Source: a bacterium (GTDB lineage Bacteria; Zhuqueibacterota; Zhuqueibacteria; Residuimicrobiales; Krinioviventaceae). From it: 64,000 bases of DNA. Of the stretch, positions 22,035 to 44,119 are shown piece by piece. A program made the position numbers and the translations under genes. Every line of letters begins with the position of its first letter. The first letter of the stretch is position 1. The stretch covers positions 32,001-96,000 of the forward strand of contig CAXXMD010000002.1 in NCBI GenBank assembly GCA_963675755.2, written 5' to 3'. The notes beneath the pieces were generated by a model. It made no database searches. It worked only from the letters and a program-made list of their open reading frames with translations, and was not told the DNA's origin.

Positions 22035-22053
22035 ATTGAAAAGGGAGATACTC

Positions 22054-25538: not shown

Positions 25539-25758
25539 TATTCAATCTTGAAAATTAGTAAACATCAATGTAGTGTTTGTTGTTAATATTATCAAGTAAA
25601 ATACTATTTTGTCGACATTATGGGACACGTTTTAAATAATGTGTGGAGTAGAATATAGAATCCTAAAAAAAGTGTTGCTTTTAATGGACATTGTTTTTAC
25701 ATTCATAAAATTCAATAGGTTATATGCTATAATACGGTGTATATGACAGGATGCAAAC

Positions 25759-26892
25759 ATGTCCGATAACAAAATACCAGAGAATGGTCCTGTTTCAGAA
25801 CAGCAATTGCAAAATTCAGAATTACAGGCCCTTTTAAATTTTCAAACCGAAATTTTTAATTCATTGCCTGCCCACCTTGTTGTCATTGATGATGAGTATA
25901 ATATTTTAAATTATAATCAAGCTGTTGCTGAAATGGCAGGCAACAAGAGTGTTGTTGGCAAAAATCTTTTTGTTTCATTAGAGTTTTATCAGTCTGAAGC
26001 TTTGAACAAAGTTTTGACTGATTTTATTAATAGCAATAAAACAGTTATTCATATAACATTAGATCATCCACACAAGATGGGTGAAAAATATGTCCATTCT
26101 ATATCCAGATTAAAAGACATTGCTGGTCTGAAAGCTTTTCTGTTGCATTCGACATTGTATGATGGCCAAGACAACAATCAGCTAAATGATTTTATTCAGG
26201 ATAAATTTATAAGCCTTGGCGCTTTTGCCGGTAAAGTAGCGCATGATATAAATAATCCGCTATCAGTAATTCTTACACGAATCGATTTTTTACAATCTAT
26301 GGACCTGGAAAATGCCATTGAAGAGGGTGATGTTGAAATCGTTGAAGAGATAGGTATTATTCAACGCCAGGCTCAGAGGATTTTTGATATATTAGATAAA
26401 ATTGGTGCATTGCAGATGCATGCAAAAGAAGTACCGGCAGAATGTGATGTAACTGAAATTGTGACCCGTGCTGTTACCATTTCTGAATTTCAGCGTCCCC
26501 ATAAAACAGTGCATGCTGTTAAAGAGCTAACAGAAGGATTGCCCCGAATGGTTTGTAATGAAATAAAACTTGAACGGGCTATTAATGAATTGTTAAAAAA
26601 TGCATTTGAAGCGGTTAGTGAAAAGGGGGATGTATCTATTAAATTAACCTTTGAAGAACCTGAATACCGTCTTGAAATTAAAGACAGTGGTCCTGGAATA
26701 CCACCCGAAGATATCGGCAAGGTTTTTGATCCGTTTTTTACTACCAAACAAGGTGTAAAAGGAGCAGGTTTGGGATTAACAATAGCATATGCTGCCGCAC
26801 TTGCTCATAATGGTCGTATTGAAATAAATAGTGTTCCCGAATCAGGTACAACCATGACCCTGGTTTTGAAACGTAATTCAGTAAATGAATAA
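25759..26892 (+). CDS. Cytoplasmic PAS sensor histidine kinase (NtrB-like)
   Basis: VAHDINNPL, NELLKNA, DSGPGI, FDPFFTTK, GAGLGL; no TM segment. Confidence 0.92.
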   Translation: MSDNKIPENGPVSEQQLQNSELQALLNFQTEIFNSLPAHLVVIDDEYNILNYNQAVAEMAGNKSVVGKNLFVSLEFYQSEALNKVLTDFINSNKTVIHITLDHPHKMGEKYVHSISRLKDIAGLKAFLLHSTLYDGQDNNQLNDFIQDKFISLGAFAGKVAHDINNPLSVILTRIDFLQSMDLENAIEEGDVEIVEEIGIIQRQAQRIFDILDKIGALQMHAKEVPAECDVTEIVTRAVTISEFQRPHKTVHAVKELTEGLPRMVCNEIKLERAINELLKNAFEAVSEKGDVSIKLTFEEPEYRLEIKDSGPGIPPEDIGKVFDPFFTTKQGVKGAGLGLTIAYAAALAHNGRIEINSVPESGTTMTLVLKRNSVNE

Positions 26893-26929
26893 CCAACAGG
26901 TTTTATATAAACATAAAGGTTGATTGTAG

Positions 26930-27985
26930 ATGTCAACAGTAATAGCCAATGATAAGCATGTTTCGGGTTTAATTCTTGAATTAGATCCAAAGCAGGCTGT
27001 TGAATCATTCTCTGGATCTCTTGAAAATTGTGATTCACTTTTGAGTGATATAAAGCCCGGTATGTCTTTGTCTGAAGCGTTAAAACGTCTTTGGAATGTT
27101 GATATTGAAGACATGTGTAACGATGCTTATCTGCATGGTAGAACTGCCAGTTATGAAATTCCTGTTCAGTGCAATACAGTTCAACATTGGTATTTAATTA
27201 CTGCATCACCCCGTGTAAGCAATCAAATAATAAATGGCGTATCCCTGAATGTTAGAGATAATACGCTTGTCAAACGAAATGAACGTCAGTTATTACTGCA
27301 CGATAAAATGGGGAATATTGCGCTGCTTGCGTCTCAGGTTGCACACAAGCTCAACAATCCTTTGGCAGCGGTATTGAACCATGTTGGTAGTTTGCTGGTA
27401 ACTGATTTGAGCGATGAGAATCTATTCAGAGTCAAGAGTAAACTGGAATTGATGCAGGAACAGATATATTCCATGTCTGTGATTACCAATGCACTCGTGG
27501 CATTCAGTAAAGAATCCGGAGTAAATTTTAGGTCTCTGGATGTAAATGAGATTGTTCAAAAATCAGTTGAACTGTCTCATTTACTTCAAATAAAGAGTAA
27601 CATCACATACCACGTAACGTTGTTACCCAATTTACCCCAAGTTTTGGGAAATGAAATTACGCTTGAACAAAGTTTTATTAATATCATTCGAAATGCCCTG
27701 GAAGCAATGCCGGATGGAGGTGAATTTACAATTACCACCAATTTGGATCCGCTTTCGAATGATTATATTTGTGTCTCTTTTCAAGATACAGGTTATGGTA
27801 TTGAAAAACAGTATCAGGATCAGGTTTTTGATCCATTTTTCAAGACCAAAGATGAAAATCATTCTGGTTTGGGTTTATCAATAAGCTATGGTATTATTGC
27901 AAATCACAACGGAAGTATTGAATTTAACAGTGAACCGGATAAAGGTACAAAAGTAACTGTACTCTTGCCGGTAAACCGTAAATAA
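26930..27985 (+). CDS. Second cytoplasmic sensor histidine kinase (NtrB-like)
   Basis: VAHKLNNPL, NIIRNALEAM, DTGYGI, FDPFFKTK, SGLGL. Confidence 0.92.
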   Translation: MSTVIANDKHVSGLILELDPKQAVESFSGSLENCDSLLSDIKPGMSLSEALKRLWNVDIEDMCNDAYLHGRTASYEIPVQCNTVQHWYLITASPRVSNQIINGVSLNVRDNTLVKRNERQLLLHDKMGNIALLASQVAHKLNNPLAAVLNHVGSLLVTDLSDENLFRVKSKLELMQEQIYSMSVITNALVAFSKESGVNFRSLDVNEIVQKSVELSHLLQIKSNITYHVTLLPNLPQVLGNEITLEQSFINIIRNALEAMPDGGEFTITTNLDPLSNDYICVSFQDTGYGIEKQYQDQVFDPFFKTKDENHSGLGLSISYGIIANHNGSIEFNSEPDKGTKVTVLLPVNRK

Positions 27986-28005
27986 AATGTTAAAGGAATA
28001 AACAC

Positions 28006-29436
28006 ATGAGTGATATAAACAACTCGGATTCTAACAAGTTGTTAATAATTGATGATGACAAGAGCGTACTGGATTCCATTGTATCTTTATTAAAAAATTC
28101 AAACTATCAATGTTTAACTGCACCTTCAACCGCTGCCGGTGTGAATCTTATAAAAACAGAACAGCCCCTGGTTGTTTTAACCGATCTGAAAATGGAACGA
28201 GATTCATCTGGTATTGAGGTGCTTGAAGAAGCCAAAAAAATTGATCCTGAGCTGGTGGTTATTCTTTATACAGCGTATGGCAATGTTCCTGCTGCTGTAG
28301 ATGCGTTTAAAAAGGGTGCTTTTGATTTTATACAAAAAGTTCAAACCCACCATGATATTCTGGTACCCATAGATCGTGCTTTTAAATTTGCCCGTATTCA
28401 GCGGGAAAATGCGTTTTTGCGCAGCAGGGTAGATCTTACTGATGACGGCAGTTTTTATGGCGCAGTGGGTACAAGTCCTACAATCCGTGAGGTTTTTGAA
28501 ACAGTCAAACGCGTTGCTCGTACCAATGCAACCGTTATGATTACCGGTGAAACCGGTACGGGAAAAGAAGTAATTGCCCGTGGATTGCATTATCACAGTC
28601 CACGTCAGAGCGAATCTTTTGTACCCGTAGCTGTTGGCACATTACCAGACAATCTGCTTGAAGGTGAATTGTTTGGACATGTTAAGGGTGCTTATACCGG
28701 TGCAACTACTGATAAACCCGGTCTGTTTGAAGCAGCAGACAAGGGAACAATCATGCTTGATGAGATTGGCGAAGTCAGTATCGAAATGCAGCACAAATTA
28801 CTGCGCGTCATTCAGGAACGTACTGTTAGAAGACTGGGAAGTGTAAAAGAACGTGATATTGATGTTAGAATTATCAGTGCAACCAACCGTGATCCTGAAG
28901 AATTGGTAAAAGCGGGTAAATTACGCGAAGATCTTTTTTATCGATTAAATGTGATCCACATCCACATTCCGCCATTGCGCGAGCGCAAAGAAGATATACC
29001 CATTCTAGCTTATCATTTCCTTAAAAAATATCGGGATATTGGTGTAGTAGAAGTTGAAAAGATTTCAAATGAAACTTTACTCTTGTTGCAGGAATATGAG
29101 TGGCCGGGTAATGTAAGACAGTTACAGGGAACAATGGAGAGAATGGTAGCATTGGCCGGCAGGCCTGAACTTCGTCCTGAAGATTTACCAGATAAAATAC
29201 GTCCTACAACCAAACGTGTTTATGTAGATACAAATGAAGAACTGGATTTTAAAACTGCCAAAGCTCGTATTACTGAAGCGTTTGAAAAACAATATATTGA
29301 AAATTTACTGGACAAGTATAACAACAACATCACCAAGGTTGCGGATGCTGCCGGTTTAAATAGAAAAACTATATATCGATTAATTGACTCCCGGAATATT
29401 AAATTCAGAGGAGTTCGAGAAGATGATGACGATTAA
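28006..29436 (+). CDS. Sigma-54-dependent response regulator (NtrC/PrsR-like: REC-AAA+-Fis HTH)
   Basis: IIDDD/TDLKM receiver, GETGTGKE, ELFGHVKGAYTGA, LDEIGE, WPGNVRQL, NITKVA..AGLNRKTIYR. Confidence 0.95.
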   Translation: MSDINNSDSNKLLIIDDDKSVLDSIVSLLKNSNYQCLTAPSTAAGVNLIKTEQPLVVLTDLKMERDSSGIEVLEEAKKIDPELVVILYTAYGNVPAAVDAFKKGAFDFIQKVQTHHDILVPIDRAFKFARIQRENAFLRSRVDLTDDGSFYGAVGTSPTIREVFETVKRVARTNATVMITGETGTGKEVIARGLHYHSPRQSESFVPVAVGTLPDNLLEGELFGHVKGAYTGATTDKPGLFEAADKGTIMLDEIGEVSIEMQHKLLRVIQERTVRRLGSVKERDIDVRIISATNRDPEELVKAGKLREDLFYRLNVIHIHIPPLRERKEDIPILAYHFLKKYRDIGVVEVEKISNETLLLLQEYEWPGNVRQLQGTMERMVALAGRPELRPEDLPDKIRPTTKRVYVDTNEELDFKTAKARITEAFEKQYIENLLDKYNNNITKVADAAGLNRKTIYRLIDSRNIKFRGVREDDDD

Positions 29437-29631
29437 TTGATATTGCAAAGAGGGTTTTCATTACATACCCAGGGGGATATGTACTTTACACCACAGTTAT
29501 TTTTATTTAGTGGCCTGCGGGCAACACATCTCGGCTAGAAAAAATGATAATTTTAAACTTTTCTACTTTTTGCCCCCTGTAAGTGTTTGTTTTTAATTAA
29601 AATAGAAAAATGGTAATTTGTGGCGATTTAC

Positions 29632-29647
29632 TGGCATGAAACTTGTA
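29632..29647 (+). promoter_or_regulatory. Putative sigma-54 promoter (-24/-12 variant)
   Basis: TGGCATGAAACTTGTA: GG-N10-GT, about 55 bp upstream of ATG 29701. Confidence 0.5.
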
Positions 29648-29700
29648 CTGGCAGTAATAGAAAAATTAAAGACCATTCACTAAACAGGGTGTATGACGGG

Positions 29701-30123
29701 ATGATGAAAGAAAATATTAAATTAAAAAAAGCCAAATTGATCCTTGTTGGAACGATCGATTTTGGTGTTGTTGAAGGTCTTAAAGAACGTATGAAAGGTG
29801 CCAATTATGAGGTACATTTCGTTCAAAAAGGTATCAGCGTTTTATCAGAAATTCTGGATAATGATGTTGATTTACTTATTCTTGATCTTGAACTTGCAGG
29901 AATTATGGGTGTTGAAATTCTTCCTGTAATACGACGTTTGCGTCCACGTTTACCTGTGATTTTAATTACAGATGATTTTACAAACAGAGTTCGCAAAGTT
30001 GCCGCTGAACTTGGCATTACTTATCAGGCAAGTAAACCTATGTCTCCAAATGAAACTGAAGCTATTATTTCTGCAACTGAAAGTATTGTTGAAAAAAGCG
30101 CACTCAACACATTAGCTATATAA
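29701..30123 (+). CDS. Stand-alone response-regulator receiver protein
   Basis: DLLILDLEL..IMGVEIL, PVILIT, KP; N-terminal acidic pocket atypical. Confidence 0.85.
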   Translation: MMKENIKLKKAKLILVGTIDFGVVEGLKERMKGANYEVHFVQKGISVLSEILDNDVDLLILDLELAGIMGVEILPVIRRLRPRLPVILITDDFTNRVRKVAAELGITYQASKPMSPNETEAIISATESIVEKSALNTLAI

Positions 30124-30135
30124 TTATATAGAATT

Positions 30136-30187
30136 AAAAAGCCACCGGTAAAATTTTGAATTCTTGATTTTGCCGGTGGCTTTTTTT
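30136..30187 (+). terminator. Intrinsic terminator
   Basis: AAAAAGCCACCGGTAAAAT...ATTTTGCCGGTGGC followed by T7. Confidence 0.85.
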
Positions 30188-30432
30188 GTTTACCCCCATT
30201 TATTATTTCATCCCCATGTTCAATTTTCAAGTGATGTGACATACAGTCAACAGTATTTCATATATGTCCATTGTAATAACCAATTAGTAAACGAAAATGT
30301 AGTTATTTTGATGTTCATATGGCTCCGGACAAGTAGTAATGATTTTTTTGCAGTATATTAAGTTATTAAAAAACAATTAGTTAAAAATTTAATTTTCGTG
30401 TGTATTTGAATTGGTAAATATTTTAGATTTTT

Positions 30433-30448
30433 TGGCATAAACTCTGCT
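30433..30448 (+). promoter_or_regulatory. Sigma-54 promoter of the surface-protein/EPS operon
   Basis: TGGCATAAACTCTGCT: exact GG-N10-GC spacing, about 60 bp upstream of ATG 30509. Confidence 0.75.
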
Positions 30449-30508
30449 TTAGCAAGGGTAGAAAATAAAAAATGATTCAAGAAATAAAGATTTTTGAGGA
30501 GAGAAGTA

Positions 30509-31798
30509 ATGAAATATAATCTGCGCAAATTTAACCGAATGAAACAGAATAGACGCGTTTTCAGTCTGTTTGGTCAGGCTCATTCTACGGTTCTCTCTTT
30601 TTTGTTTGTGTTATTCTTTTTTACTCAGGTTTATGCAGCAGGTTCTCTGGTAGCATCATGGAGCCCAAATGCTGAATCAGATCTCGCTGGATACAAAATC
30701 TATTATGGTACAACATCCGGTGATCAGACGAATTGGCAGATGAAAGATGTTGGTGATGTCAATCGTCATGTATTTCATGATCTGGTAGCAGGAGAAACTT
30801 ATTATATGGTTGTTACTGCATATGACTGGGCAGGAAATGAGAGTGATCCTTCAACTGAAGCCAGCGCTGTTGCAACAAATCGAGATGTTACAATTGCATA
30901 TACCGAAGAAAACGGATTGGTAATTACCTGGGATGCTGTAAGTGGTGCAACTGCATATGATATTTATAAAAGCTCAAGTGCATACTTTACACCAACAACA
31001 CCTTTAATTTCTGTAACGGGAACACAGTATACAGATAGTAATTTTTCACGTGAAGCTGATACTGGATCATATTATATAGTTACAGCTAAAGCTGATGCCA
31101 ATGAATTATTTACTTTTTCAACAATTGGTGCTTTAAATGTAAAGCTGAATGGTGCCAAAAATCTGGTATCTGTTCCTTTTATTACATCTGATTCAACTTT
31201 ATCAACTGTATTAGGTTCTCAACTTACGGGCAGCAGTTTTTCAAGTCAGGCTGACCGTGTAAGAGTTTGGAATGGAAGTGAATATGAAATGGCATGGTTG
31301 GTTGAAGGTACAGGTACAGCTTATGATGGTAAATGGCTGCGTAAAGCCGGTGATATGGAATCACCAATCAGACTTGTTCCTCAGCAGGCTTTTTGGATTG
31401 AACTGGTAAACCCGGTTCCAACCGATTCTGTAGTAACAGTTGCTGGTAGAGTTGCTGAAGATGCCAGTTATACATATCAATTAAATAGTGGTCCTAACTT
31501 TGTTGGTTCGTACTATCCTTCAGAAATAACATTGACTAACACCAATTTGGGATCAAGTGGAGCAGTAACCGGCGGTTTGAATGGTGCTGTATCTGATAAA
31601 ATTATGCATTGGCGTAATGTAAACGACTTTGACGTGGCCTGGCTTGTAGCTGGTTCTGGAACGAGCTGGGACGGGGAGTGGGTGAATGAGCGAGGTGATG
31701 CTCTTTCTAATATGACTTTCAAGGCAGGCCACGGCTATATTATTATGATTAAAAATGACAATACAACCCGTAACTGGCAGTTACCAAAACCCAATTAA
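30509..31798 (+). CDS. Secreted fibronectin type III protein with a duplicated beta-rich C-terminal domain (no CTD)
   Basis: W.PN.ESDLAGYKIYYG...YYMVVTAYDWAGNESD.S FN3; second FN3-like unit; two repeats G.NLVSVP/GPNFVG..P ... D....W...AWLV.G.GT..DG.W. Confidence 0.85.
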   Translation: MKYNLRKFNRMKQNRRVFSLFGQAHSTVLSFLFVLFFFTQVYAAGSLVASWSPNAESDLAGYKIYYGTTSGDQTNWQMKDVGDVNRHVFHDLVAGETYYMVVTAYDWAGNESDPSTEASAVATNRDVTIAYTEENGLVITWDAVSGATAYDIYKSSSAYFTPTTPLISVTGTQYTDSNFSREADTGSYYIVTAKADANELFTFSTIGALNVKLNGAKNLVSVPFITSDSTLSTVLGSQLTGSSFSSQADRVRVWNGSEYEMAWLVEGTGTAYDGKWLRKAGDMESPIRLVPQQAFWIELVNPVPTDSVVTVAGRVAEDASYTYQLNSGPNFVGSYYPSEITLTNTNLGSSGAVTGGLNGAVSDKIMHWRNVNDFDVAWLVAGSGTSWDGEWVNERGDALSNMTFKAGHGYIIMIKNDNTTRNWQLPKPN

Positions 31799-31831
31799 TA
31801 TTGGGACGAGATGTTAAAAGGAGTAATTGTG

Positions 31832-32893
31832 ATGAACAAAGCTTATACGATTATATTAGTAATATTTTTAACCATGCTGGTTGTGTCGGTACAGGCCGGA
31901 ACTTTGGAAGCTTTTTCCGATGAAGGTTGTGTTGATGTTAATGGTTCTACCTACCTTGTTGGAAGCAACAGTAGTGGTGATCTTGTACAATTGATCTGGA
32001 CCGGCCCGGATGGCAAAATTAACGAAGCAGACGATTTGGGCAATGCAACTGGTGATGATGTAATTATCGATTCAACTTATATCGGTTTTGGAACTTTACC
32101 AGGTGTAACAGCAAATGGTCGTTTTGGAAAAACGTTTACCCATGATCTTTTGGCTCAATCCTATACGGTTTATATACGTACATGGAACGCTCCAACAATT
32201 ACAGGCTTGACAGATGCTTATGGTAATTCTCCAATTCGCACTATGCAAAGTGATATTGACCATTTCAATTGCGGTGCTGTTAGATGTATTGAACGTACCA
32301 GTACACCTGTAGAATTGACCAGCTTTACTGTAAATTCCGAACCCGGAAAAATGGTTTTAAATTGGGTAACCCAGTCTGAAACTGAAAACCTTGGATTTTA
32401 CATCTATAGAAGTGAATCAATTGATGGTGAACGTGTGAATGTGACTGAATCCATGATTGATGGCGCCATTAACGCACAATCCAGAAATGATTACAGCTGG
32501 ATTGATAACAGTATTGAAGATGGTGTTGTATACTATTACTGGCTGGTGGATGTGGCTACAACGGGTGAAACAAATTTTTCAGATTCTCAAAAAGCAATTG
32601 GTATTGCCAAACCTGATCATTATGAATTAAGCCAGAATTATCCGAATCCATTTAACCCCAGAACCACAATTAAATATACTCTCAAAGATGACGGTCATGT
32701 AGAACTCGCTATCTTTAATATTCGTGGTCAACTGGTACGCAGTCTGGTTAACAGTGAACAATCCGCAGGTGTTTATTCAAAGATTTGGGATGCCAAAGAT
32801 GACAATGGTGTTTCATTGCCAAGCGGAATCTATTTTTACAGAATACGTTCTAACGAGTTTGAATCTATCAAAAAGATGTCCTTGACCAAGTAA
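31832..32893 (+). CDS. Secreted protein with PVEL-Ig linker and FlgD-Ig/T9SS-type CTD
   Basis: Signal peptide; PVELTSF, W.TQSETENLGF, QNYPNPFNP.TTIKY, IFNIRGQLVRSL, SGIYFYRI, KKMSLTK. Confidence 0.9.
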   Translation: MNKAYTIILVIFLTMLVVSVQAGTLEAFSDEGCVDVNGSTYLVGSNSSGDLVQLIWTGPDGKINEADDLGNATGDDVIIDSTYIGFGTLPGVTANGRFGKTFTHDLLAQSYTVYIRTWNAPTITGLTDAYGNSPIRTMQSDIDHFNCGAVRCIERTSTPVELTSFTVNSEPGKMVLNWVTQSETENLGFYIYRSESIDGERVNVTESMIDGAINAQSRNDYSWIDNSIEDGVVYYYWLVDVATTGETNFSDSQKAIGIAKPDHYELSQNYPNPFNPRTTIKYTLKDDGHVELAIFNIRGQLVRSLVNSEQSAGVYSKIWDAKDDNGVSLPSGIYFYRIRSNEFESIKKMSLTK

Positions 32894-32905
32894 CAGGTCT
32901 TGGGC

Positions 32906-32944
32906 ATTTTTACTAAAAATTTTTACTAAATATTTTTACTAAAT
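32906..32944. repeat. Three tandem 13-bp direct repeats ATTTTTACTAAA(A/T)
   Basis: Units at 32906-32918, 32919-32931 and 32932-32944. Confidence 0.85.
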
Positions 32945-32969
32945 AATTTATTATTAAGCGGAACCGAAA

Positions 32970-33728
32970 ATGAAAACAGTACGAAATACAATCTCTCTGA
33001 TCTTGACCCTGGTGCTCTTGAGCGTGTTGACAGCTTGTTCGGTAAATCCTCCGGCAGATCCTCAGCAGCAAAAGGTACAGGGAAAGCATCGTACAGTTTT
33101 TAAAATGAAAGCACCGCAGAATAATATCACAGAATCCACATCATATCGTTTAGGATATGGTGACAGTATTGAAATAAAGTTTTTTAACAATCCGGAATAC
33201 AACGAAACCATTACAGTACGCCCTGATGGCCGAATCAGTTTGCAGCGGGTTGGTGATATATTTGTTATCCAGATGACACCAGCGGAATTGGATGACATCA
33301 TCACACAAACCTATAGCGAAATTCTGATTAATCCCGATGTTACCGTTTTTGTACGGGAATTTGGCGGCCAGGATGTATATGTTATGGGTGAAGTTGAAAA
33401 TCCGGGAGTATTCAAAGTAACAAAAGGTATGACCATGTTAAGGGCTATCGCCGCGGCAGGCGGGCCCAAGGGCGGTGCGGAGTTGGGTAGTGTCTTACTT
33501 ATCCGCAATGACGGACATAGTCGTGGTGAGGCTGTACGGGTGGATTTAGCATTGTCAACATTGCGTAAAAATCTTAATTATGATTTACCTGTTCAATCCT
33601 ATGATGTCGTTTTTGTACCACGAACGTTTATTGCGGATGTCAATTCTTTCGTAACACAGTTATATGATATTGCACTACCGCCATTCGACATTTGGTCCAG
33701 ATACAATTACTGGTATGGCTCAAAGTAA
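32970..33728 (+). CDS. Polysaccharide export lipoprotein (Wza/OPX, Poly_export + SLBB)
   Basis: Lipobox LTAC; YRLGYGD.I.I, VRPDGRISL, VYVMGEVENPG, AIAAAGG, DVVFVP. Confidence 0.92.
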   Translation: MKTVRNTISLILTLVLLSVLTACSVNPPADPQQQKVQGKHRTVFKMKAPQNNITESTSYRLGYGDSIEIKFFNNPEYNETITVRPDGRISLQRVGDIFVIQMTPAELDDIITQTYSEILINPDVTVFVREFGGQDVYVMGEVENPGVFKVTKGMTMLRAIAAAGGPKGGAELGSVLLIRNDGHSRGEAVRVDLALSTLRKNLNYDLPVQSYDVVFVPRTFIADVNSFVTQLYDIALPPFDIWSRYNYWYGSK

Positions 33729-33760
33729 CAGTTATTTGATCACTAAAAAGGATTGACAAC

Positions 33761-35287: not shown

Positions 35288-35310
35288 TTAAAACCTTTTT
35301 GGAGGAAAAA

Positions 35311-35523
35311 ATGAGAAATCAATTGAAAATTAAAAGATGGGAAGCCGGATTAAAACAATATGAACTGGCATTTCTGCTGGGTTGCAGCTCTACATATCTT
35401 TCAATGGTAGAGAATAATCGAATTGAAGCAACTGTCGAATTTAAACGCAAAGTTTCAGAGATTTTCAATGTCAGTATTGGCGAGATTTTCCATGAAAATA
35501 TCAATACAGCGGCAATGGCTTAA
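35311..35523 (+). CDS. Small XRE/Cro-type HTH protein
   Basis: LK..R..AGLKQYELA.LLG.S..YLS.VENNR...SE.FNVSIGEIF; GGAGG RBS. Confidence 0.85.
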   Translation: MRNQLKIKRWEAGLKQYELAFLLGCSSTYLSMVENNRIEATVEFKRKVSEIFNVSIGEIFHENINTAAMA

Positions 35524-35554
35524 TTGGATATAATAATTGAATAACGGAATGGCC

Positions 35555-36541: not shown

Positions 36542-36558
36542 TTTTTTGAGGTGCCAGA

Positions 36559-37452
36559 ATGAGCGTTGTCCATGAATTGTTGTGTCAGATCGAAGAAAAG
36601 GAAAATTTACAATATTTCCGTCAACCTGCACCTGTAGAGACCACTACAGATAATGGTTTGTTTGTATTTGATCTGCCCAAAGAGATCATTAATGATTTTT
36701 ACGGTCTCAAGGAATATGTCCGTATCGCCAATCGTGGTGGCAACGTTAGGGTATTGTCTATTACAAGTTCTACATATGGTGAAGGTGCCTCAACCATAGC
36801 AACATATCTAAGTTTTTTAATGGCCGGTGGTCTGGTTAAACAACCAGCGGTTCCTGCTACACAACAGGAAAACAATTCACTGTTTAATGACAGCTTGCGC
36901 GCACTTGTAAATCACAACCGCAAATCTAATGTTGTACCCATGGACAGTGAACCTACAAACTCGAGATTTTCAAGCAGAGATGATATATTACTCATCGATG
37001 CAAATCTTGAACAGCCCGGTCTGCACCGATATTTCGGATTACCTGATGAGATGGGCCTGGGCGAAATTATTGAACAAAATCAGGACTGGAAAGAATATGT
37101 CCGGTCTGTTGATAATAGTAATTTAAAGATCATCACTGCGGGCAGTGCTGAATCTAAATCCATCGAATTGTTAAGCTCTGACCGGTTCCGTGCTCTGGTA
37201 CGTCAGTGGCGTAATACTTTTAAATATGTAATTATTGATACACCCCCTGTACTGAACTCTATTGAATCTCTTAGTATTGCTTCAGTATCTGATGGTGTAA
37301 TTCTGATCGTTTGTGCCGGTCAAACCCGTTGGGAAAACGCACAAACTGCAAAAATGAAATTAATGTCTGCAAAAGCAAATGTACTGGGAGTTGCCCTCAA
37401 TCGCCGCAAGATGGATATTCCTGATGGACTCTATAAACGACTGGTTTCATAG
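36559..37452 (+). CDS. CpsD/CapB-like BY-kinase domain (Wzc C-part) with degenerate Walker A
   Basis: ITSS..GEGAST (K to A), LLIDAN, YVIIDTPPV, DGVILIV, VLGVALNR; no Tyr cluster. Confidence 0.85.
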   Translation: MSVVHELLCQIEEKENLQYFRQPAPVETTTDNGLFVFDLPKEIINDFYGLKEYVRIANRGGNVRVLSITSSTYGEGASTIATYLSFLMAGGLVKQPAVPATQQENNSLFNDSLRALVNHNRKSNVVPMDSEPTNSRFSSRDDILLIDANLEQPGLHRYFGLPDEMGLGEIIEQNQDWKEYVRSVDNSNLKIITAGSAESKSIELLSSDRFRALVRQWRNTFKYVIIDTPPVLNSIESLSIASVSDGVILIVCAGQTRWENAQTAKMKLMSAKANVLGVALNRRKMDIPDGLYKRLVS

Positions 37453-37458
37453 GGGGGA

Positions 37459-38949
37459 ATGGTGGTATCGGCTTCTCAAAATGTCTATTCTTCTCGGAGT
37501 AATCCGGTTCCAATAATCATAACAGTTGCGTTACTGGGTGTAATCCTTTCTGTATGGGCTGTTTGGGCCCTTGATTTCAAATGGGCAGTATTTACAGTTA
37601 TGGGTGTTTTGTTCCCGTTTGCAATGGCAATTGTGGGCAAAGCGAGACGTTTTGTGCTGGCATTATTGGTTTTTACAATTCCCCTGAATATCGATTATAA
37701 TATCCTGTTTCATCCCAGTCCCGGTGGTGCGAATGCGTTCACCATTGGTTTGACTGATATTTTTCTGTTTGTCTTGATTTGTATTACCCTTGTAAATCTG
37801 TTAAAATATAAACATGAATTATATTTTTCTTTTTTCCCCGCAATATCATTACCCGTTTTAGGGTTGTTTGTATTTTATCTGATTTCCATGATCAATTCGC
37901 GCGACCTGTTGTGGAGCGCTTTTGATATGTTTAGCCTGTTCAAAGTCTGGTTGTTTTTTCTTTTTGTTGCCAATAATCTTGAGAATAAAAGCGATGTAAA
38001 GCTGGTTATTGCGGCATTGTCATTCGGATTATTGTTGCAGGCCTTTTTTGTAACTCTCCAGTTTTTTAACGGACAAAGTATGCTCAATATGCTGGGTCTG
38101 GGAGCATCATCTAAAATGCTGGCTTTTGAGATGCAGTCCTCTATGGTAAACCGACCAGGTGGTACCGTTGGGCATTGTAATCACCTTGCCCGCTATATTG
38201 GCTTGTTATTGCCTTTAACACTTGTGCTTGCTTTGGTTAGTTATCGCCGCTCATGGCGGTGGTTCATGTCTATTGTTACACTAGCGGGTGTAATTGCCAT
38301 GATCTTTACACTGACACGTAGTTCATGGATCGGCTTGTTGGGATCTGTGATGGTTATGGTGCCGGTTCTGTTTGTTTGGCGACTTGTTAATTTTAGAACC
38401 ATAACAGCCATGTTTGCTGTTTCTATTTTGTTCCTGTTGGTCATTTTTGCTTTCAAGGATGTGATATGGGGACGTATAACTTCTGATGATCTGGGTTCAG
38501 CAAAAACCCGTTTAACCACTGCCAAAGTTGCGTTCAATATAATCAAAGATCATCCTTTTATTGGTGTTGGAATTAATAACTATGGCTCTGTTCTAGAGCA
38601 ATATTGGGATGCTGAAGATACATTTACCCGTAGAGCAGCCGTACATAATACCTATTTATTGTATATGGCTGAAATTGGACTTTTGGGATTTGCAGTTTAT
38701 TTGTGGCTGCTAGTTGCTTTTTTTGCAAGAATTAAGACTGCAATAAAAAGTAGAATTAAATATTTTTCTGCTGTGGCAATTGGAATTTTGGGAAGCTTTA
38801 TTGGATTTTTAATTATGGCATTTCCTGACAAAAGTTACAAGGAAAACATAACGCTTTTACTTGTATTTTTTGCCCTGGCTGCTATAATTGAAGGTATGAA
38901 CCGAATTTCATCGCAAAATGAAATGACTCATGTGTTAGCAGAGAGATAA
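37459..38949 (+). CDS. O-antigen ligase/Wzy-like polymerase
   Basis: More than 10 TM segments; R..GT.GH.N.LA, T.TRSSW.G, HPF.GVG.NNY, VHN.YL...AE.G..G. Confidence 0.88.
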   Translation: MVVSASQNVYSSRSNPVPIIITVALLGVILSVWAVWALDFKWAVFTVMGVLFPFAMAIVGKARRFVLALLVFTIPLNIDYNILFHPSPGGANAFTIGLTDIFLFVLICITLVNLLKYKHELYFSFFPAISLPVLGLFVFYLISMINSRDLLWSAFDMFSLFKVWLFFLFVANNLENKSDVKLVIAALSFGLLLQAFFVTLQFFNGQSMLNMLGLGASSKMLAFEMQSSMVNRPGGTVGHCNHLARYIGLLLPLTLVLALVSYRRSWRWFMSIVTLAGVIAMIFTLTRSSWIGLLGSVMVMVPVLFVWRLVNFRTITAMFAVSILFLLVIFAFKDVIWGRITSDDLGSAKTRLTTAKVAFNIIKDHPFIGVGINNYGSVLEQYWDAEDTFTRRAAVHNTYLLYMAEIGLLGFAVYLWLLVAFFARIKTAIKSRIKYFSAVAIGILGSFIGFLIMAFPDKSYKENITLLLVFFALAAIIEGMNRISSQNEMTHVLAER

Positions 38950-38953
38950 TTGA

Positions 38954-39754
38954 ATGAATTCTCAAGACATTGCAGGCTTTATCGGAAATAACAGTCTATT
39001 AAGACGTTTGGCTTTTATTGCAGTGCATTTGACAACTTTGCGTGAATGGTATTTACGCAAAAAATTGAAACAAACTTTGACAAATTCATTTACTTTTCTG
39101 GATGCCGGAAGTGGAATGGGACAACATGCAGTTTGGATTGCTGAAAATTATCCAAAATCACAGGTTTTGGGAATTGATACTGATAGCAGACAAATTGAAG
39201 ATTGCCGACGTTTTGCAACAAGAAACAATATCCCTAATCTGGCTTTTGAGTCCGGTAGTCTTGATGAGGTAAAACTGGATACAGAATTTGACCATGTTCT
39301 TTGTGCAAGTGTTTTAGAACATATCGAGAACGATGATAAAGTTTTAAAATCCTTTTACAAAATTTTAAAACCCAATGGTACCCTGATTGTTTATGTACCT
39401 GTTTCTGAAAAGCGGGTTTTAAAAAGTTTGGAAAGAAAAATAAACAAAATAACAGAACAGGCAAATGCAAAATACCCGCATGAGCATGTGCGTTATTACA
39501 AACCCAATGAATTGTTGGATAAATTAATGAATAACGGCTTTAAAATTAAAACAAATCAACATACATATGGCACATTTGGCAGATGGTCTTATGATATTGT
39601 TACAACTGTACAATACAGTCGTTTTTTTAAATTGATTTTTCCTTTTTACTTTATACTGGTGCATCCATTTGTGATGCTCCTCATGTGGCTGGATATGCGT
39701 TCCGAAAACCTGGATGGGAATGGGTTGTTGGTAGTGGCGGAAAAGGTGATATGA
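38954..39754 (+). CDS. Class I SAM-dependent methyltransferase
   Basis: FLDAGSGMG, FD.V....VLEHIE.D, LKPNG, HVR.Y. Confidence 0.88.
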   Translation: MNSQDIAGFIGNNSLLRRLAFIAVHLTTLREWYLRKKLKQTLTNSFTFLDAGSGMGQHAVWIAENYPKSQVLGIDTDSRQIEDCRRFATRNNIPNLAFESGSLDEVKLDTEFDHVLCASVLEHIENDDKVLKSFYKILKPNGTLIVYVPVSEKRVLKSLERKINKITEQANAKYPHEHVRYYKPNELLDKLMNNGFKIKTNQHTYGTFGRWSYDIVTTVQYSRFFKLIFPFYFILVHPFVMLLMWLDMRSENLDGNGLLVVAEKVI

Positions 39755-41178
39755 ATTATTTAAACTCGATAATTTCAAATACTGTTGCGCGTGGGTTAAC
39801 CGAATTGGTGAACCGTGCAGGCGGTGCTGTGTTTTGGGTGATGGTGGCACGCTATCTCGGTATTTCAGGTTTAGGAACGCTGGCCTATGCTTTATCCTTA
39901 TTTTCTTTATTCTCAACCTTGTCATCTATGGGACTGGGCAACGTAGCTGTTCGTGACATTGCCAAAGATAAAACCAAAGCGGGTGTTTATTTTGGTCAGG
40001 GCCTTTTGCTGGGTTTGGGACTCTCTTTGTTATTTGCAGGTTTAATGATTACCACCAGTCTTGTTCTGAAACCTGGAGAATATTCTATTTTTGCTTCTAT
40101 AGCTATGGCTATTGCTATTTTCCCTGCTTCAGGATTCTACTGGAGTAAAACCATGCTTAGCGCTGCTGAAAAGATGGGTTACATTGCCATTGCACGCGCG
40201 CTTGAAAACAGTTTCAAAGTAATTGTGGGTTTGATTATGATCCTTGCTGGCGCCGGAATTAAAGAACTGGTGCTGGTAATTGTTTTCAGCAAAGTTATTT
40301 CTTTTGCTGTTTGTTTTGCATTTGCAAGTGACAAAGTTGCCCGTCCAGTTTGGCGTTCAGACAAAGAGGTATTGGGCCATTTGATCAAGCATGCTCCGTC
40401 ATTTTCTCTTATCAATTTGTTCAACAGTTTATTCTGGTCAATATCTGTTTTACTGCTTACATCTCTTCGTGGTGAAGCTGAGGCAGGTATTTTTAGTGCG
40501 GCTTTTAAATTGGTAGAGATATGTATTGCATTGGCCCTTGCGTATGGACAGGCATTCTTTCCGGTTATATCTCGAATTTCCCGTTCGGAAAGAGAACTGT
40601 TTCAACAGCTATTCCAAAAGTCTATTAAATTTATTACCATTGCCACTCTGGCGGTTGCAGGAATTATGCAGGTGATTGCACCTCAGTTGATTACACTTTT
40701 CTATGGCCCGGGTATGGACAGGGCGGTACCTGTATTACAGGTTTTAATCTGGTTGATTGTTCCTTTTGGTATTATTCCGGTTATGGCTTTTACGCTCATT
40801 AGTATTAATCAGCAAAAATTTGACCTGGTTGCCAATATTTCCGGTACTATGATATTATTTGTTACAAGCATGATCATTGTTCCGGTTTCGGGAGCTTTGG
40901 GCGCTGCTATTTCCATAGTTATTGCAGGATTTGTATTTTTGGCCGCTGAACTGTTTGGTCTTTCCAGTAAATTCTATCGCTTACAAAATGCTGTTGAATG
41001 GCTCAAACCTCTGCCAGGTTTATTGTTGATGTGGAGTATTGCTTTTATATTAAAAGATTATCAGGTTTGGCTTGCCATGTTTAGTGGCGCGGTTATGTAT
41101 GTAATTTATTTGTGGTTGAGTAAAACAGTTACGCAACCTGAAATTTTATACTTAAAAAAATGGGTTTCTGTCCGATAA
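39751..41178 (+). CDS. Wzx-type flippase
   Basis: ARYLG..G.G, multiple TM segments, AGIFSAAFKL, FFP.ISR; ATGA overlap with the upstream gene. Confidence 0.9.
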   Translation: MNYLNSIISNTVARGLTELVNRAGGAVFWVMVARYLGISGLGTLAYALSLFSLFSTLSSMGLGNVAVRDIAKDKTKAGVYFGQGLLLGLGLSLLFAGLMITTSLVLKPGEYSIFASIAMAIAIFPASGFYWSKTMLSAAEKMGYIAIARALENSFKVIVGLIMILAGAGIKELVLVIVFSKVISFAVCFAFASDKVARPVWRSDKEVLGHLIKHAPSFSLINLFNSLFWSISVLLLTSLRGEAEAGIFSAAFKLVEICIALALAYGQAFFPVISRISRSERELFQQLFQKSIKFITIATLAVAGIMQVIAPQLITLFYGPGMDRAVPVLQVLIWLIVPFGIIPVMAFTLISINQQKFDLVANISGTMILFVTSMIIVPVSGALGAAISIVIAGFVFLAAELFGLSSKFYRLQNAVEWLKPLPGLLLMWSIAFILKDYQVWLAMFSGAVMYVIYLWLSKTVTQPEILYLKKWVSVR

Positions 41179-41188
41179 TAATAATGAA

Positions 41189-42181
41189 ATGATGAACGAT
41201 AATGCTAAAATATTGCCCAGGATCTCTGTTATCATTCCGGTACGTAACCGGGATGATGTCATTCTAAGGACTCTGAATGCACTTGAAAATCAGGATTATG
41301 ATCAATCGCTTTATCAGGTGATTGTTGTGGATGATGCTTCAACAGATGAAACACTGGACCAGTTGATTGCTTTTTCGGCAGATACCCGAATTGATTTTAA
41401 AATCATTCAGGGACCCGGTAAAGGTGCGGGATACGCTCGCAATCTTGCCATGGAACATGCACAAGGTGAAATATTATTGTTTCTGGATGGTGATACAATA
41501 CCGGAATTGGATCTGGTGAGAAAACATGTTGAGCTGCATGAACAGCATTATCATCCGGTATGCATTATGGGACGTGTTGATATGTCTCTCGAACTTGACA
41601 ATCATCGTCAGTACCGATTATTCGATACAGAAATGCCTTTTCATTCTGATAAAATGCAGCGGGTAGATTGGCAAATGTACCGGGCTGCAAATACATCTAT
41701 AACCTGGTCTGCCATTCACAGTATTGGTGGTTTTGATCTGGAATTAAAAGCTGCCGAAGATACTGAATTGGCCTGGCGTTTGAACGATAAAGGGATTCCA
41801 ATATATTATTATAATTCACTGGTTTGTATGCATCACCATCCCATTGATGTTGAAGGATATATGGAAAAAGGTGCCATGTATGGCCTTGCGGTAGGTGTCT
41901 GGTATAAAAAAGCCCCTGAAATACGCCGTGAATTGGTATCCCGATATGGTGTTACCGCACCGGAATTGACAGTATTTAGAAAGTTGAAACATACCTTTAG
42001 AAGTGTATTTATTAATCGATATACATTCCCTTTGATTGTTAAATCAGGAAAGATAATGCGAAAAATCTGGTTAAAGGGATCAGAAATTTTATTAAAGAGT
42101 GCTTTTCGGTTCAATACCCGAAAAGCTTTTGCAAATTATGTTTTTTCGAATACGGGTAATATAGCGGCGGGGAGGTCGTGA
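41189..42181 (+). CDS. Glycosyltransferase family 2
   Basis: ISVIIPVRNR, VIVVDDASTD, ARN, LFLDGD, GGFD, ED.EL..RL. Confidence 0.92.
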   Translation: MMNDNAKILPRISVIIPVRNRDDVILRTLNALENQDYDQSLYQVIVVDDASTDETLDQLIAFSADTRIDFKIIQGPGKGAGYARNLAMEHAQGEILLFLDGDTIPELDLVRKHVELHEQHYHPVCIMGRVDMSLELDNHRQYRLFDTEMPFHSDKMQRVDWQMYRAANTSITWSAIHSIGGFDLELKAAEDTELAWRLNDKGIPIYYYNSLVCMHHHPIDVEGYMEKGAMYGLAVGVWYKKAPEIRRELVSRYGVTAPELTVFRKLKHTFRSVFINRYTFPLIVKSGKIMRKIWLKGSEILLKSAFRFNTRKAFANYVFSNTGNIAAGRS

Positions 42182-43437
42182 TGAGAGTATTAATGACCCA
42201 TTGGAACTATGCACCGGAATTTTCAGGAGCTGCTTTACAAGGACATCGGTTGTCACTTGAGCTCATGAAACTTGGAATAGAAGTAAATGTGTTGACCGGA
42301 ACGGATAATCCGGATATGGTTGGAACAGACTATGTTGATGGCATCAAAGTCGTCAGGGTGTTGCGTGATAAATCATCACGTTTAAAACATTTACACTATG
42401 GCTGGGAAATGTTCAAACATGTATTGCGGTTTCGCCATGATGTGGATGTAGTGCATTCACATGGATTTATTGCACCTGTAAATATAGCAGCCAAACTTGC
42501 CAAATTACCGGTAATCCAGAAAATTACCAACCTGAATGTTGATGATCCCATTACTGTGAGGAGACGTAAACTGGGACATATTCTGATTAAAATATTCAAC
42601 TATTCACGTATTCTTGTGCCAACATCGCGTTTGCTGGAAAGAACCTGCAGACGTACTGATAACTCTCAACCTTTTTTCGCCAAAGTGTCTAATGGTGTTG
42701 ACCCCAATCTATTCAGACCGGTTTCTGCTGATGAGAAAAAACAAATTAAACACCAGTTGGGTTTGCCACGCAACCGTACAATTTTCCTGACGGTGGGCTC
42801 TGTGACCCATACAAAAGGACTGGATCTTTTAATCAATGCACTATATGAATTAAAACTCACAACATACGATGATTTTTTATTGCTGGTAATTGGCCCTAAT
42901 CATTTGAGTAAAAGTTTTGGCTTGGGTGACGAACCTACTGACACCTTTACCCGAAACCTTTTGCGTTCGATCAATGATAAGGGACTGTTCAAACATGTGA
43001 AATTTTTGGGAGTACAAGCCAACATCCATGAATATATGCAGGCAGCTGATGTATATATTCACTCAAGTCGCCAGGAAGGCCAACCCAATGCTATATTGGA
43101 GGCCATGGCAAGCGGTATTCCCGTAGTTGCTAACCGTTTACCTGGTATAACCGATGAATTGCTGCAAAATGGTCGTTACGGTTTTGTAGTTGACAGTGAA
43201 AATGATGTCGAGTTTGCATCTGCCATCCGTGTATTGATGAAACATGAAAAAATTCGTGGACGTATGGGAGCCTATTCCCGTATAGAGGTTTTACAAAATT
43301 ATAACCTTTGGAAAATCGCAGAAAAATATCGCTCATTATATTATAGCGTAGTAGATGAAGAAACAGTGGCAGAAGCGGGTATGCCGCAAGAAAATCAGTC
43401 ATTATTATCAATATTGAACCATATTAAACACAAGTAA
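42178..43437 (+). CDS. Glycosyltransferase family 4 (GT-B)
   Basis: NGVD...F.P, KGLDLLI.A, FLG, S..EGQPNAILEAMASG.PVV. Confidence 0.92.
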   Translation: MMRVLMTHWNYAPEFSGAALQGHRLSLELMKLGIEVNVLTGTDNPDMVGTDYVDGIKVVRVLRDKSSRLKHLHYGWEMFKHVLRFRHDVDVVHSHGFIAPVNIAAKLAKLPVIQKITNLNVDDPITVRRRKLGHILIKIFNYSRILVPTSRLLERTCRRTDNSQPFFAKVSNGVDPNLFRPVSADEKKQIKHQLGLPRNRTIFLTVGSVTHTKGLDLLINALYELKLTTYDDFLLLVIGPNHLSKSFGLGDEPTDTFTRNLLRSINDKGLFKHVKFLGVQANIHEYMQAADVYIHSSRQEGQPNAILEAMASGIPVVANRLPGITDELLQNGRYGFVVDSENDVEFASAIRVLMKHEKIRGRMGAYSRIEVLQNYNLWKIAEKYRSLYYSVVDEETVAEAGMPQENQSLLSILNHIKHK

Positions 43438-43438
43438 T

Positions 43439-44119
43439 ATGGATCTGCAAGATCGTTTAGATAAACGTTTTTCACCGCAGGCTGTTGCATTCAAAAGAAT
43501 CATCAGCAAAGTTGTACAGCCGTTTAAGATTGAAAAAATTCTTGTGGTTGGCTGTGGTCGTGGATACGAGGCAATCAAATTACAAGAACTGTTTGGTGCA
43601 AAAATTCATGGGGTTGATGTTGAACAGGAATTTGATGTCAGGGCTGAACAATATGCACAGTTGAGCAACTATGATGGGGAAACCCTGCCGTTTACCGATA
43701 ATCATTTTGATATTGTCTATTCATTTCATGTTCTTGAACATGTAGAGGATGTAGATAAAATGTTGTTTGAAATGAAGCGGGTAATAAATCAGGGCGGATG
43801 GGTTTATATTGGTGTTCCGAACCGTTCACGATTGTTTGGCTATTTTGGAATGAAAGATAAATCGTTTTCTCAAAAATTAAAGCAAAATCTGCATGATTGG
43901 CAGGCCCGTATTCAAGGCCGTTTTGAAAACCGTTACGGTGCACATGCCGGGTTTTCAGCATCAGAATTAGGAAAGCTTTTATCAAATCATTTCACCCATG
44001 TAGAAAATGTTACCGGATTGTATTATCTAAACAAACGTAGTTATTTCAAGCTGTTGCTGCATTTACCCGGTTTTTCTAAATTTATTTTACCTTCTGTTTA
44101 TTTTCTTGCCTCAAAGTAA
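43439..44119 (+). CDS. Class I SAM-dependent methyltransferase
   Basis: LVVGCGRG, LPF.DN.FD.V...HVLEHV, VPNR. Confidence 0.88.
   Translation: MDLQDRLDKRFSPQAVAFKRIISKVVQPFKIEKILVVGCGRGYEAIKLQELFGAKIHGVDVEQEFDVRAEQYAQLSNYDGETLPFTDNHFDIVYSFHVLEHVEDVDKMLFEMKRVINQGGWVYIGVPNRSRLFGYFGMKDKSFSQKLKQNLHDWQARIQGRFENRYGAHAGFSASELGKLLSNHFTHVENVTGLYYLNKRSYFKLLLHLPGFSKFILPSVYFLASK

Follow-up and report, generated by a model that had tools for sequence, protein, structure and literature searches.

We analysed a window of 64,000 nucleotides (G000:C2:32001-96000) from the 6.48-Mb genome (3 contigs, 98% complete) of a bacterium of candidate division KSB1, a group known mainly from metagenomes. Within this window a block of regulator genes, a pair of genes for secreted proteins and a Wzx/Wzy-type exopolysaccharide (EPS) block follow one another on the forward strand, and we propose that they form a clade-specific KSB1 cell-surface matrix module, a reading to which we give about an even chance. 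The three blocks are syntenic across one order of KSB1, and the pair and the EPS core stand together also in one further family. The usual example of a link between protein sorting and exopolysaccharide is that of PEP-CTERM proteins and their exosortases, on which the formation of flocs in activated sludge rests. A first-pass annotation of this DNA had described the locus as an EPS cluster of this style, whose surface protein carries a type IX secretion system (T9SS) C-terminal domain (CTD) instead of PEP-CTERM. To this picture we add a predicted heterodimer of uncatalogued domains, a putative cluster-specific operator, a degenerate kinase-like protein and the finding that the protein pair and exosortases do not occur together in the KSB1 genomes sampled.

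The secreted protein pair and its conservation

The open reading frames (ORFs) of the window were scanned against Pfam and NCBIfam (version 20.0). The first gene of the pair (30509..31798, + strand) encodes a protein with two FN3 domains and a C-terminal domain, here called domain X (residues ~205-429), which ends in WQLPKPN. The second (31832..32893, +) encodes a T9SS cargo composed of a beta-sandwich N-domain (residues ~22-160), an FN3-like domain and a type-A CTD. Both proteins have a signal peptide by eye. The CTD, located at residues 277-356 of 360, scores above the cut-offs of TIGR04183 (39.8 bits; cut-off 23) and PF18962 (36 bits; cut-off 27), and the last domain of the modelled protein aligns to the CTD region of PorU. 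It had been attributed to the lead protein of the run; the first gene, that of the FN3 protein, has no CTD and the second carries it. The AlphaFold2 models of the two proteins, built from alignments of 16 and 18 orthologues, are confident, one having a predicted local distance difference test (pLDDT) value of 86.4 and a predicted template modelling (pTM) score of 0.48, the other values of 85.7 and 0.70.

The conservation of the locus was followed in 20-kb stretches from 20 of the 36 other genomes of the order that are positive for the ExeA-like ATPase of the EPS block, picked for contig room; a homologue of this ATPase is present in 37 of the 41 genomes of the order, G000 included. Two of the 20 related loci end at or in wza. 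In each of the 18 that extend upstream, full-length homologues of the FN3 and CTD proteins (34-96% identity) are encoded directly upstream of wza in the same order. The refuting outcome set beforehand, namely that the two genes are not conserved beside homologous EPS loci, did not occur. The activator gene of the regulator block is syntenic in 14 and the receiver gene in 16 of the 18 loci, and the order pair, then EPS core, is found also in two loci of family f7. A separate scan returned three loci in which a domain X ORF is directly followed by an N-domain ORF, L064 being on the same contig as L053. That scan was made with the alignment of the FN3 protein; its pattern was that of an FN3 motif, and it otherwise yielded mostly unrelated FN3 proteins, the pair being present in 3 of 80 loci.

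At the level of the phylum, we surveyed 151 sampled KSB1 genomes, the unpublished G115 being counted in the tallies. The N-domain protein occurs in 38 of them, i.e., in 33 of 36 genomes of families f1-f4 plus G000 and in 4/4 of f7, and in none of the other 20 families of the sample. The ATPase (E <= 1e-30) is present in 62 genomes and an exosortase over the cut-off in 15, the latter in 0/36 of f1-f4 and 0/4 of f7. In no sampled genome does the N-domain protein accompany an exosortase; ATPase and exosortase are found together in three (G115, G138 and G150), on separate contigs. Among the loci from other families, L149 and L156 have a Bac_transf gene ahead of the EPS core, and no PEP-CTERM-like tail was seen by eye upstream of the core. 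In L148 and L149 (families f9 and f11), two or three other T9SS-CTD proteins, whose N-terminal parts differ, are encoded in front of the core; they match the FN3-like and CTD part of our query (residues ~144-360) and not its N-domain.

The first-pass annotation had seen no exosortase in the window, and the absence extends to the whole genome, in which neither PF09721 nor TIGR04178 has a match; archaeal control genomes did match. That PF09721 works in this phylum follows from the exosortases which it finds over its cut-off in 15 other KSB1 genomes. The PEP-CTERM model TIGR02595 has no match in the genome, but none in any control genome either. A crude regular expression for PEP-CTERM tails retrieved three ORFs, two of them tiny and the third an OPT transporter, whose PEP-TM-KRK tail (G000:C3:1296601-1298514) is the last helix of the transporter and was rejected. 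The T9SS machinery, on the other hand, was searched for as PorU, SprA, PorV and GldM. In agreement with the proposed use of T9SS-type sorting, two PorU genes (884 and 877 bits) and SprA (518 bits, read in four pieces) are over their cut-offs, and a PorV-like gene is just under. Proteins with a CTD are common in this organism: 178 six-frame ORFs have N[YF]PNPF[NS] in their tail, and three CTD proteins are encoded in the window. At 17920-23163 of the window an AraC-type regulator gene is followed by genes for a YadA-head/Peptidase_S74 protein, a dockerin-domain protein and another T9SS-CTD protein, while at 50076-54340 an FN3 and T9SS-CTD protein is followed by a 1071-aa FGE-sulfatase/Fib_succ_major protein. 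As for the literature, full-text searches found no paper joining KSB1 and T9SS and none on TIGR03015, and one for KSB1 and exopolysaccharide returned, to judge by title or abstract, nothing on topic. The available passages of the KSB1 phylum paper (PMC11683472), its supplementary gene tables apart, contain neither "secretion" nor "T9SS".

Three observations link domain X to the N-domain. In a six-frame scan of the genome each occurs once, and both occurrences are at this locus. The two domains are fused in two metagenomic proteins, P0061, in which X precedes N as in the gene pair, and P0152, which begins with N and finishes with X. Finally, a complex model of domain X and the N-domain scores 0.75, while the highest of 3 controls is at 0.02. 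Among solved complexes 58 of 80 attain the pass mark, among mismatched pairs 2 of 110, a calibration which is rough given the custom alignments. At least 96% of the contacts are common to the runs, and the pLDDT of the partner is at least 91. The modelling supports the view that domain X and the N-domain bind as a heterodimer.

Domain X comprises ~220 residues in two related beta-rich repeats and ends with W-x-[YFL]-P-[NK]-P. Searched against 1.84 billion representative proteins, its profile finds 1449 at E <= 1e-3 and 531 at E <= 1e-10. These proteins are 200-5541 aa long and often end with W-x-Y-P-K-P-Y; of the 144 proteins listed in which the match covers most of the profile, 108 have the end of the domain no more than 12 residues from the C-terminus. 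A Pfam scan of 46 domain X proteins recognised passenger domains in 23, among them PKD, beta-helix, Big_1, cohesin, CBM11 and peptidase M23. Being C-terminal on long and varied passengers, domain X behaves, as far as sequence can tell, like a general C-terminal module of surface proteins. Cluster look-ups for 20 of these proteins gave KSB1, Saganbacteria and WOR-1 as the only named sources. Word-based searches returned nothing for domain X alone among proteins of 123-394 aa and 19 matches, all of KSB1 type, for its profile among longer proteins, and the distant relatives come solely from the full HMMER scan. A protein atlas offers, as unconfirmed leads, clusters without a name that bear the labels Verrucomicrobiota and Kiritimatiellota (scores 0.92 and 0.82).

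The profile of the N-domain has 64 longer homologues, 59 of which have the NYPNPFN motif in their tail. The first-pass annotation had suggested looking among such homologues for proteins that end in PEP-CTERM; none of the 64 has a [VI]PEP tail. Thirteen proteins bear 2-5 N-domains in tandem and all but P0041 end in a CTD-like tail. An arrangement of 3-5 tandem N-domains with a T9SS CTD, resembling a scaffoldin, is seen in P0003, P0013, P0019, P0021, P0026, P0027, P0031, P0038, P0043 and P0053, while P0041, with two copies, terminates in a hydrophobic helix and RSRKRT, i.e., in another anchor and no T9SS CTD. Neither domain X nor the N-domain has a family in the Pfam-A copy used or in NCBIfam 20.0, and their profiles match no PDB sequence at E up to 1. 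Structure searches of the whole proteins with Foldseek and VIA-align returned lists that were filled by FN3 and CTD matches. On profile evidence, they are two uncatalogued domain families, one of which is widespread.

Promoters, putative operator and flanking gene blocks

A GG-N10-GC element (TGGCATAAACTCTGCT, 30433..30448, +), already noticed in the first-pass annotation, lies upstream of the FN3 gene and would constitute a sigma-54 -24/-12 promoter. Its position is kept in 19/19 loci, all of which have TGGCAY-N5-NTGCN in the intergenic DNA upstream of the FN3 gene, in two of them 630-770 nt from the start of the tblastn match. Patterns of the TGGCATAAACTCTGCT type with at most 2 mismatches are found in the window at chance frequency (33 matches versus 34.4 expected), and the background of a looser sigma-54 pattern is 0.075 per 480 nt per strand. 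The genome encodes RpoN and contains 23 strict sigma-54 sites, among which that of the FN3 gene alone has the palindrome described below upstream of it. A classical sigma-54 promoter (TGGCACAACCGTTGCCT, G000:C3 near 697555, -) is located 61 nt upstream of a nifH-like ORF; this natural positive control indicates that the -24/-12 consensus is in use in the organism. A related element with TTGT at -12 (TGGCATGAAACTTGTA, 29632..29647, +) lies upstream of the receiver gene, and of 16 related loci 12 share with the window a TGGCAY-N5-TTGTW ahead of this gene.

The candidate activator site ATTAGTAAA (30283..30291, unstranded) is situated 149 nt upstream of the -24 element. In 15 of the 19 loci TTA(C/G)TAA is found at -112 to -149 from this element, and the same 7-mer, present in 15/19 upstream regions, reaches at most 10 in 30 shuffles. 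The longer palindrome TTTA(C/G)TAAA has 36 copies in 20 loci. Of these, 33 are intergenic: 16 before the FN3 gene, 9 before wza, 5 before the gene of the BY-kinase-like protein (BY, bacterial tyrosine) and 3 before the receiver gene. In the window, a near-palindromic variant of it (ATTAGTAAA, 25554..25562, unstranded) occurs ~200 nt upstream of the first kinase gene, and three tandem copies of TTTTTACTAAA(A/T)A with a 13-bp period (32905..32946, unstranded), each containing the palindrome TTTACTAAA, are found 25-60 nt upstream of wza.

The pair is also bounded by potential hairpins. An intrinsic terminator hairpin with a U-run follows the receiver gene (30130..30195, +; -30.1 kcal/mol, z -8.62), and none of 200 shuffled sequences folds as well. 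A second hairpin spans the stop codon of the CTD gene and is followed by UUUUUAC (32868..32915, +; -19.0 kcal/mol, z -5.17); it is a possible terminator or attenuator, and a GC-rich hairpin with a T-run lies 3′ of the CTD gene also in L047, L060 and L061. The first-pass annotation took the whole run as one transcript. The hairpin and the operator-like repeats between 32893 and 32970 argue against uninterrupted transcription there, and the FN3 and CTD genes would therefore be read as a separate sigma-54 unit. We doubt that there is a single transcript, and the EPS genes are probably co-regulated with the pair via the shared operator, not by read-through alone. The strongest intrinsic terminator of the region (44664-44693; 13-bp stem) occurs only after the CcmE gene that trails the last methyltransferase gene. 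In L049-L053, e.g., at L050:4539-8180, a 1213-aa Apiosidase-like (PF13204)/Big_5/DUF5060/FN3 gene lies between the CTD gene and wza; this insert was found in four loci of one genus.

The Pfam and NCBIfam scans bear out the gene order of the first-pass annotation, with all genes on the + strand, and what it observed goes well beyond chance. The genes it named are present, and it left out the receiver gene and the terminator between activator and promoter. The regulator block begins with histidine kinase 1 (25759..26892, +; PAS, HisKA and HATPase_c, the last at 88.6 bits) and histidine kinase 2 (26930..27985, +; HisKA and HATPase_c). They are followed by an NtrC-type sigma-54 enhancer-binding response regulator (28006..29436, +; REC, Sigma54_activat at 225 bits and a Fis-type helix-turn-helix (HTH)) and by a single-domain response-regulator receiver (ORF 29620..30123, +, probable start ATG 29701; Response_reg, 52.3 bits).

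The EPS block opens with a short, 252-aa outer-membrane polysaccharide export (OPX) protein of the Wza type (32970..33728, +; Poly_export at 72 bits, and SLBB) and a polysaccharide co-polymerase (PCP), or chain-length protein, with Wzz and GNVR domains and no kinase domain (33761..35287, +). A 70-aa XRE-type HTH protein (35311..35523, +; HTH_3, 37.3 bits) and the ExeA-like AAA ATPase (35555..36541, +; AAA_22, 84.4 bits), with an intact Walker A motif (GLGKST), separate these from the BY-kinase-like P-loop protein (36559..37452, +). Downstream are a Wzy_C family membrane protein, polymerase or ligase (37459..38949, +; 65.9 bits), a first S-adenosylmethionine (SAM)-dependent methyltransferase (38954..39754, +; Pfam), a Wzx-type flippase (39685..41178, +; Polysacc_synt, 80.5 bits), a GT2 (41189..42181, +; Pfam) and a GT4 glycosyltransferase (42178..43437, +; Pfam and NCBIfam) and a second SAM-dependent methyltransferase (43439..44119, +; Pfam). 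One locus thus contains the Wzx/Wzy pathway set, since Wzx, Wzy, PCP, OPX and glycosyltransferases all exceed the Pfam gathering scores. A priming transferase is encoded elsewhere: Bac_transf has no match in the window and 5 in the rest of the genome, 4 of them full length. The Wzy_C protein had been considered as a possible protein-glycan ligase; given the Wzx in the locus and the lack of any other polymerase candidate there, a Wzy polymerase is the simpler reading.

The BY-kinase domain of the first-pass annotation holds as regards the P-loop family. Its Walker A lysine is replaced (GEGAST in place of GEGKST) and a tyrosine cluster is missing, with one Tyr in the last 25 residues, features which do not fit an active BY-kinase. 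Of 20 related loci, 13 have GEG[AS]ST, while the regular expression had no match in 7. Since the lysine is exchanged for Ala or Ser in 13/20 loci and a Tyr-rich tail is absent, the protein looks like a conserved pseudokinase.

Farther along the window, urocanase is represented by two overlapping ORFs on the - strand (60253-62296), one for the N-terminal and Rossmann part (60965-62296) and one for the C-terminal domain (60253-61041). They sit among genes for histidine utilisation (HAL, imidazolonepropionase-like, FTCD), and the split may be due to a frameshift or an assembly error.

Proposed mechanism and rival explanations

The matrix module could work as follows. A signal sensed by the two PAS kinases would lead to phosphorylation of the NtrC-type activator, which would bind TTTA(C/G)TAAA and switch on the FN3 and CTD genes in an RpoN-dependent manner; through the same operator, wza and the genes downstream would answer to this signal, probably via a separate promoter. 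Both proteins would cross the inner membrane by Sec, after which the T9SS would export the CTD protein and PorU would attach it to the surface. The FN3 protein, having no CTD, would dock by domain X onto the N-domain of its partner, as the complex model supports. The GT2, the GT4, the two methyltransferases, Wzx, Wzy_C, the PCP with its degenerate P-loop partner, the ExeA-like ATPase and Wza would make and export a methylated polymer, whose chain would be started by a priming transferase encoded elsewhere in the genome. We infer that the pair acts on this polymer: the surface-bound heterodimer would hold or organise it, as is thought for PEP-CTERM proteins in systems with exosortase A (XrtA).

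Several observations weigh against this reading. As regards the pair itself, Pfam and NCBIfam recognise no sugar-binding or catalytic domain in either protein, the FN3 protein has no CTD to account for a passage across the outer membrane, and the interface of the complex model shows no excess of conserved residues (4/31 on each chain, compared with 38/225 and 24/139 overall, by hand count). As regards sorting, the full-length PorV-like gene scores 240.2 bits with a cut-off of 250, i.e., it is 10 bits short, and GldM has no match in the genome with PF12081; given the abundance of CTD proteins in this organism, the presence of such a gene next to any locus says little by itself. As regards the link to the polymer, the EPS core occurs without the N-domain protein in 25 of the 62 ATPase-positive KSB1 genomes, so that the core does not need the pair; in L147 and L150 it is preceded by FHA/TPR/Ser-Thr-kinase genes. 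U-run hairpins are present 3′ of the CTD gene both in the window and in three relatives, the distance from CTD gene to wza is 200-520 nt in seven loci, and a 1213-aa glycosidase-like gene is inserted there in four; general co-transcription is therefore unlikely. Furthermore, the two f7 loci have no sigma-54 element, palindrome or regulator genes within the stretches searched. Finally, every XrtA-associated model scores under its curated cut-off.

Alternatively, the FN3/CTD pair may form an independent surface structure under sigma-54 control, for instance an adhesin or a coat subunit with its anchor, sharing regulator and neighbourhood with the EPS genes and having no contact with the polymer. 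The pair is served by a dedicated promoter and flanked by a terminator upstream and a hairpin downstream, lies at a variable distance from wza in a gap that can contain another gene, is missing beside the EPS core of other KSB1 families and lacks any carbohydrate-binding domain recognised by Pfam or NCBIfam. We nevertheless regard this alternative as unlikely, albeit a serious contender, because the pair exists once per genome and always at this locus, adjoins wza in 18/18 loci and in two f7 loci down to 34% identity, and in family f1 shares the same palindrome with the EPS unit. The proximity to wza could instead mean that the two proteins are accessory parts of EPS export or assembly and no matrix, for instance an outer-membrane or periplasmic scaffold around the short Wza in place of the outer-membrane/TPR accessories of XrtA loci. 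The pair is immediately upstream of wza, the 252-aa Wza has no other outer-membrane partner in the locus and both proteins consist of beta-sandwich modules only; the T9SS CTD, however, marks cargo that ends outside the cell or on its surface, domain X elsewhere terminates proteins of up to 5541 aa with adhesin-like passengers, and a strong dedicated sigma-54 promoter suits an abundant structural product. We consider this explanation improbable.

An inherited accident, by which a member of the abundant class of CTD proteins landed by the EPS locus in the ancestor of the order, seems to us very improbable. It could draw on the ~178 CTD-motif ORFs of the genome, on the three CTD proteins of the window and on the fact that related genomes are not independent samples. 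The gene order has been kept, however, while the proteins diverged to 34-41% identity and the intergenic DNA became unalignable; promoter and palindrome are conserved, and X and N, fused in two proteins, are predicted to bind. Going further than the matrix module, one may tentatively see in X and N an undescribed docking pair with a logic like that of cohesin and dockerin, in which T9SS-anchored N-domain scaffolds, of one module or of 2-5, display X proteins that lack a CTD. This KSB1 clade would have a one-to-one version, captured by an XrtA-like EPS cluster under sigma-54 control and replacing the PEP-CTERM/exosortase sorting of other KSB1 families. This idea is possible, though we hold it to be doubtful; if true, it would represent an evolutionary swap of the protein-sorting arm in a protein-plus-polysaccharide matrix system. 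The analysis yields in any case two uncatalogued domain families, a predicted interface, an operator sequence and the question of how a CTD-less protein reaches the surface of a T9SS organism.

Comparison with known systems

The likeness to cohesin and dockerin is one of architecture only. Domain X is mostly C-terminal on varied passengers, N-domains stand singly or in sets of 2-5 before a surface anchor, and binding of the two is predicted. Unlike the dockerin, a 60-residue calcium-binding helical module, domain X has ~220 residues in beta-rich repeats; no sequence relation was detected (PF00963 and PF00404 are unmatched), and this genome has one of each domain. As for Group 1 capsules, they share with the EPS block Wzx, Wzy_C, a PCP (Wzz and GNVR), an OPX protein (Poly_export and SLBB) and glycosyltransferases. 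Here, however, Wza is short, the kinase is split off and devoid of Walker A Lys and Tyr tail, the ExeA-like ATPase and HTH genes lie between those of the PCP and the kinase-like protein, and the locus has no priming transferase.

With the T9SS attachment of Porphyromonas gingivalis and Tannerella, as described in the accessible part of PMC7468200, our system has in common a type-A CTD cargo and genes for PorU, a PorV-like protein and SprA. According to the same part of that source, their cargo is joined to a linking sugar of anionic lipopolysaccharide (A-LPS), and the vim/wbp genes of the anchor glycan are linked to PEP-CTERM-associated families; here a Wzx/Wzy/Wza EPS cluster is found, not one for a lipopolysaccharide O-antigen, the host is a KSB1 bacterium and GldM is undetected with PF12081.

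The closest parallels are with XrtA/PEP-CTERM loci. According to passages of Haft et al. 2006 (PMC1569441), PEP-CTERM genes have large stretches of DNA before them in which a spacer lies between an activator motif and a sigma-54 motif, and PrsK/PrsR are encoded close to EPS genes. In Aquincola, like Zoogloea a floc former, the available text of PMC9850573 describes TGGCAC/CTGCTT -24/-12 motifs at pepA, RpoN-dependent expression and the restoration of flocs by its overexpression in an rpoN1 mutant. Similarly, in our locus a two-component system with an NtrC-type sigma-54 activator adjoins the EPS genes, and an activator motif and a -24/-12 motif precede the genes of the sorted protein and its partner (19/19, the palindrome in 15/19), the motif sequences presumably differing from the proteobacterial PEP-CTERM box. 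The gene set is also alike, with a short Wza, a PCP devoid of kinase, a separate BY-kinase-like protein, an ExeA-like ATPase, a Wzy_C/ligase-like protein and a GT4.

The XrtA-like layout proposed in the first-pass annotation holds to the extent that an XrtA-associated model is the best or second-best NCBIfam match of six proteins, at scores which are all under the curated cut-offs. The best matches are TIGR03015 for the ATPase (249.4 bits; cut-off 324.5), TIGR03027 (export protein) for Wza (105.7; 180), TIGR03007 (chain-length) for the PCP (131.9; 278.85), TIGR03097 (ligase) for the Wzy_C protein (46; 188.1) and TIGR03088 for the GT4 (109.6; 409), and the second-best match of the BY-kinase-like protein is TIGR03018 (Tyr kinase; 97.7; 230.65). 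The equation of the regulators with PrsK/PrsR, by contrast, was not borne out. Kinase 1 reaches 78.8 bits with TIGR02916 (PrsK; cut-off 300), the match being confined to model positions 515-678, i.e., to the catalytic core; both kinases are short PAS kinases, whereas PrsK is a transmembrane protein. The activator scores 368.7 bits with TIGR02915 (PrsR; cut-off 502.6) and is nearer to AtoC (386) and NtrC (376). Further differences are the lack of an exosortase and of any PEP-CTERM tail found, the lack of matches to PrsT, EpsI, FemAB-like, deacetylase or AsnB-like models in the scans of the locus proteins, and a sorted protein which here has a T9SS type-A CTD and a second, CTD-less partner.

Judged by gene set and apparent regulatory logic, the cluster works like an XrtA/PEP-CTERM EPS system of which it is not a member, given the scores under the cut-offs, the failure of PrsK and PrsR and the absence of an exosortase. 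Because the same regulatory logic and EPS accessory genes are combined with a T9SS cargo in an exosortase-free lineage, the comparison suggests that the principle which has been conserved is to couple a sorted protein to EPS, while the sorting machine is exchangeable.

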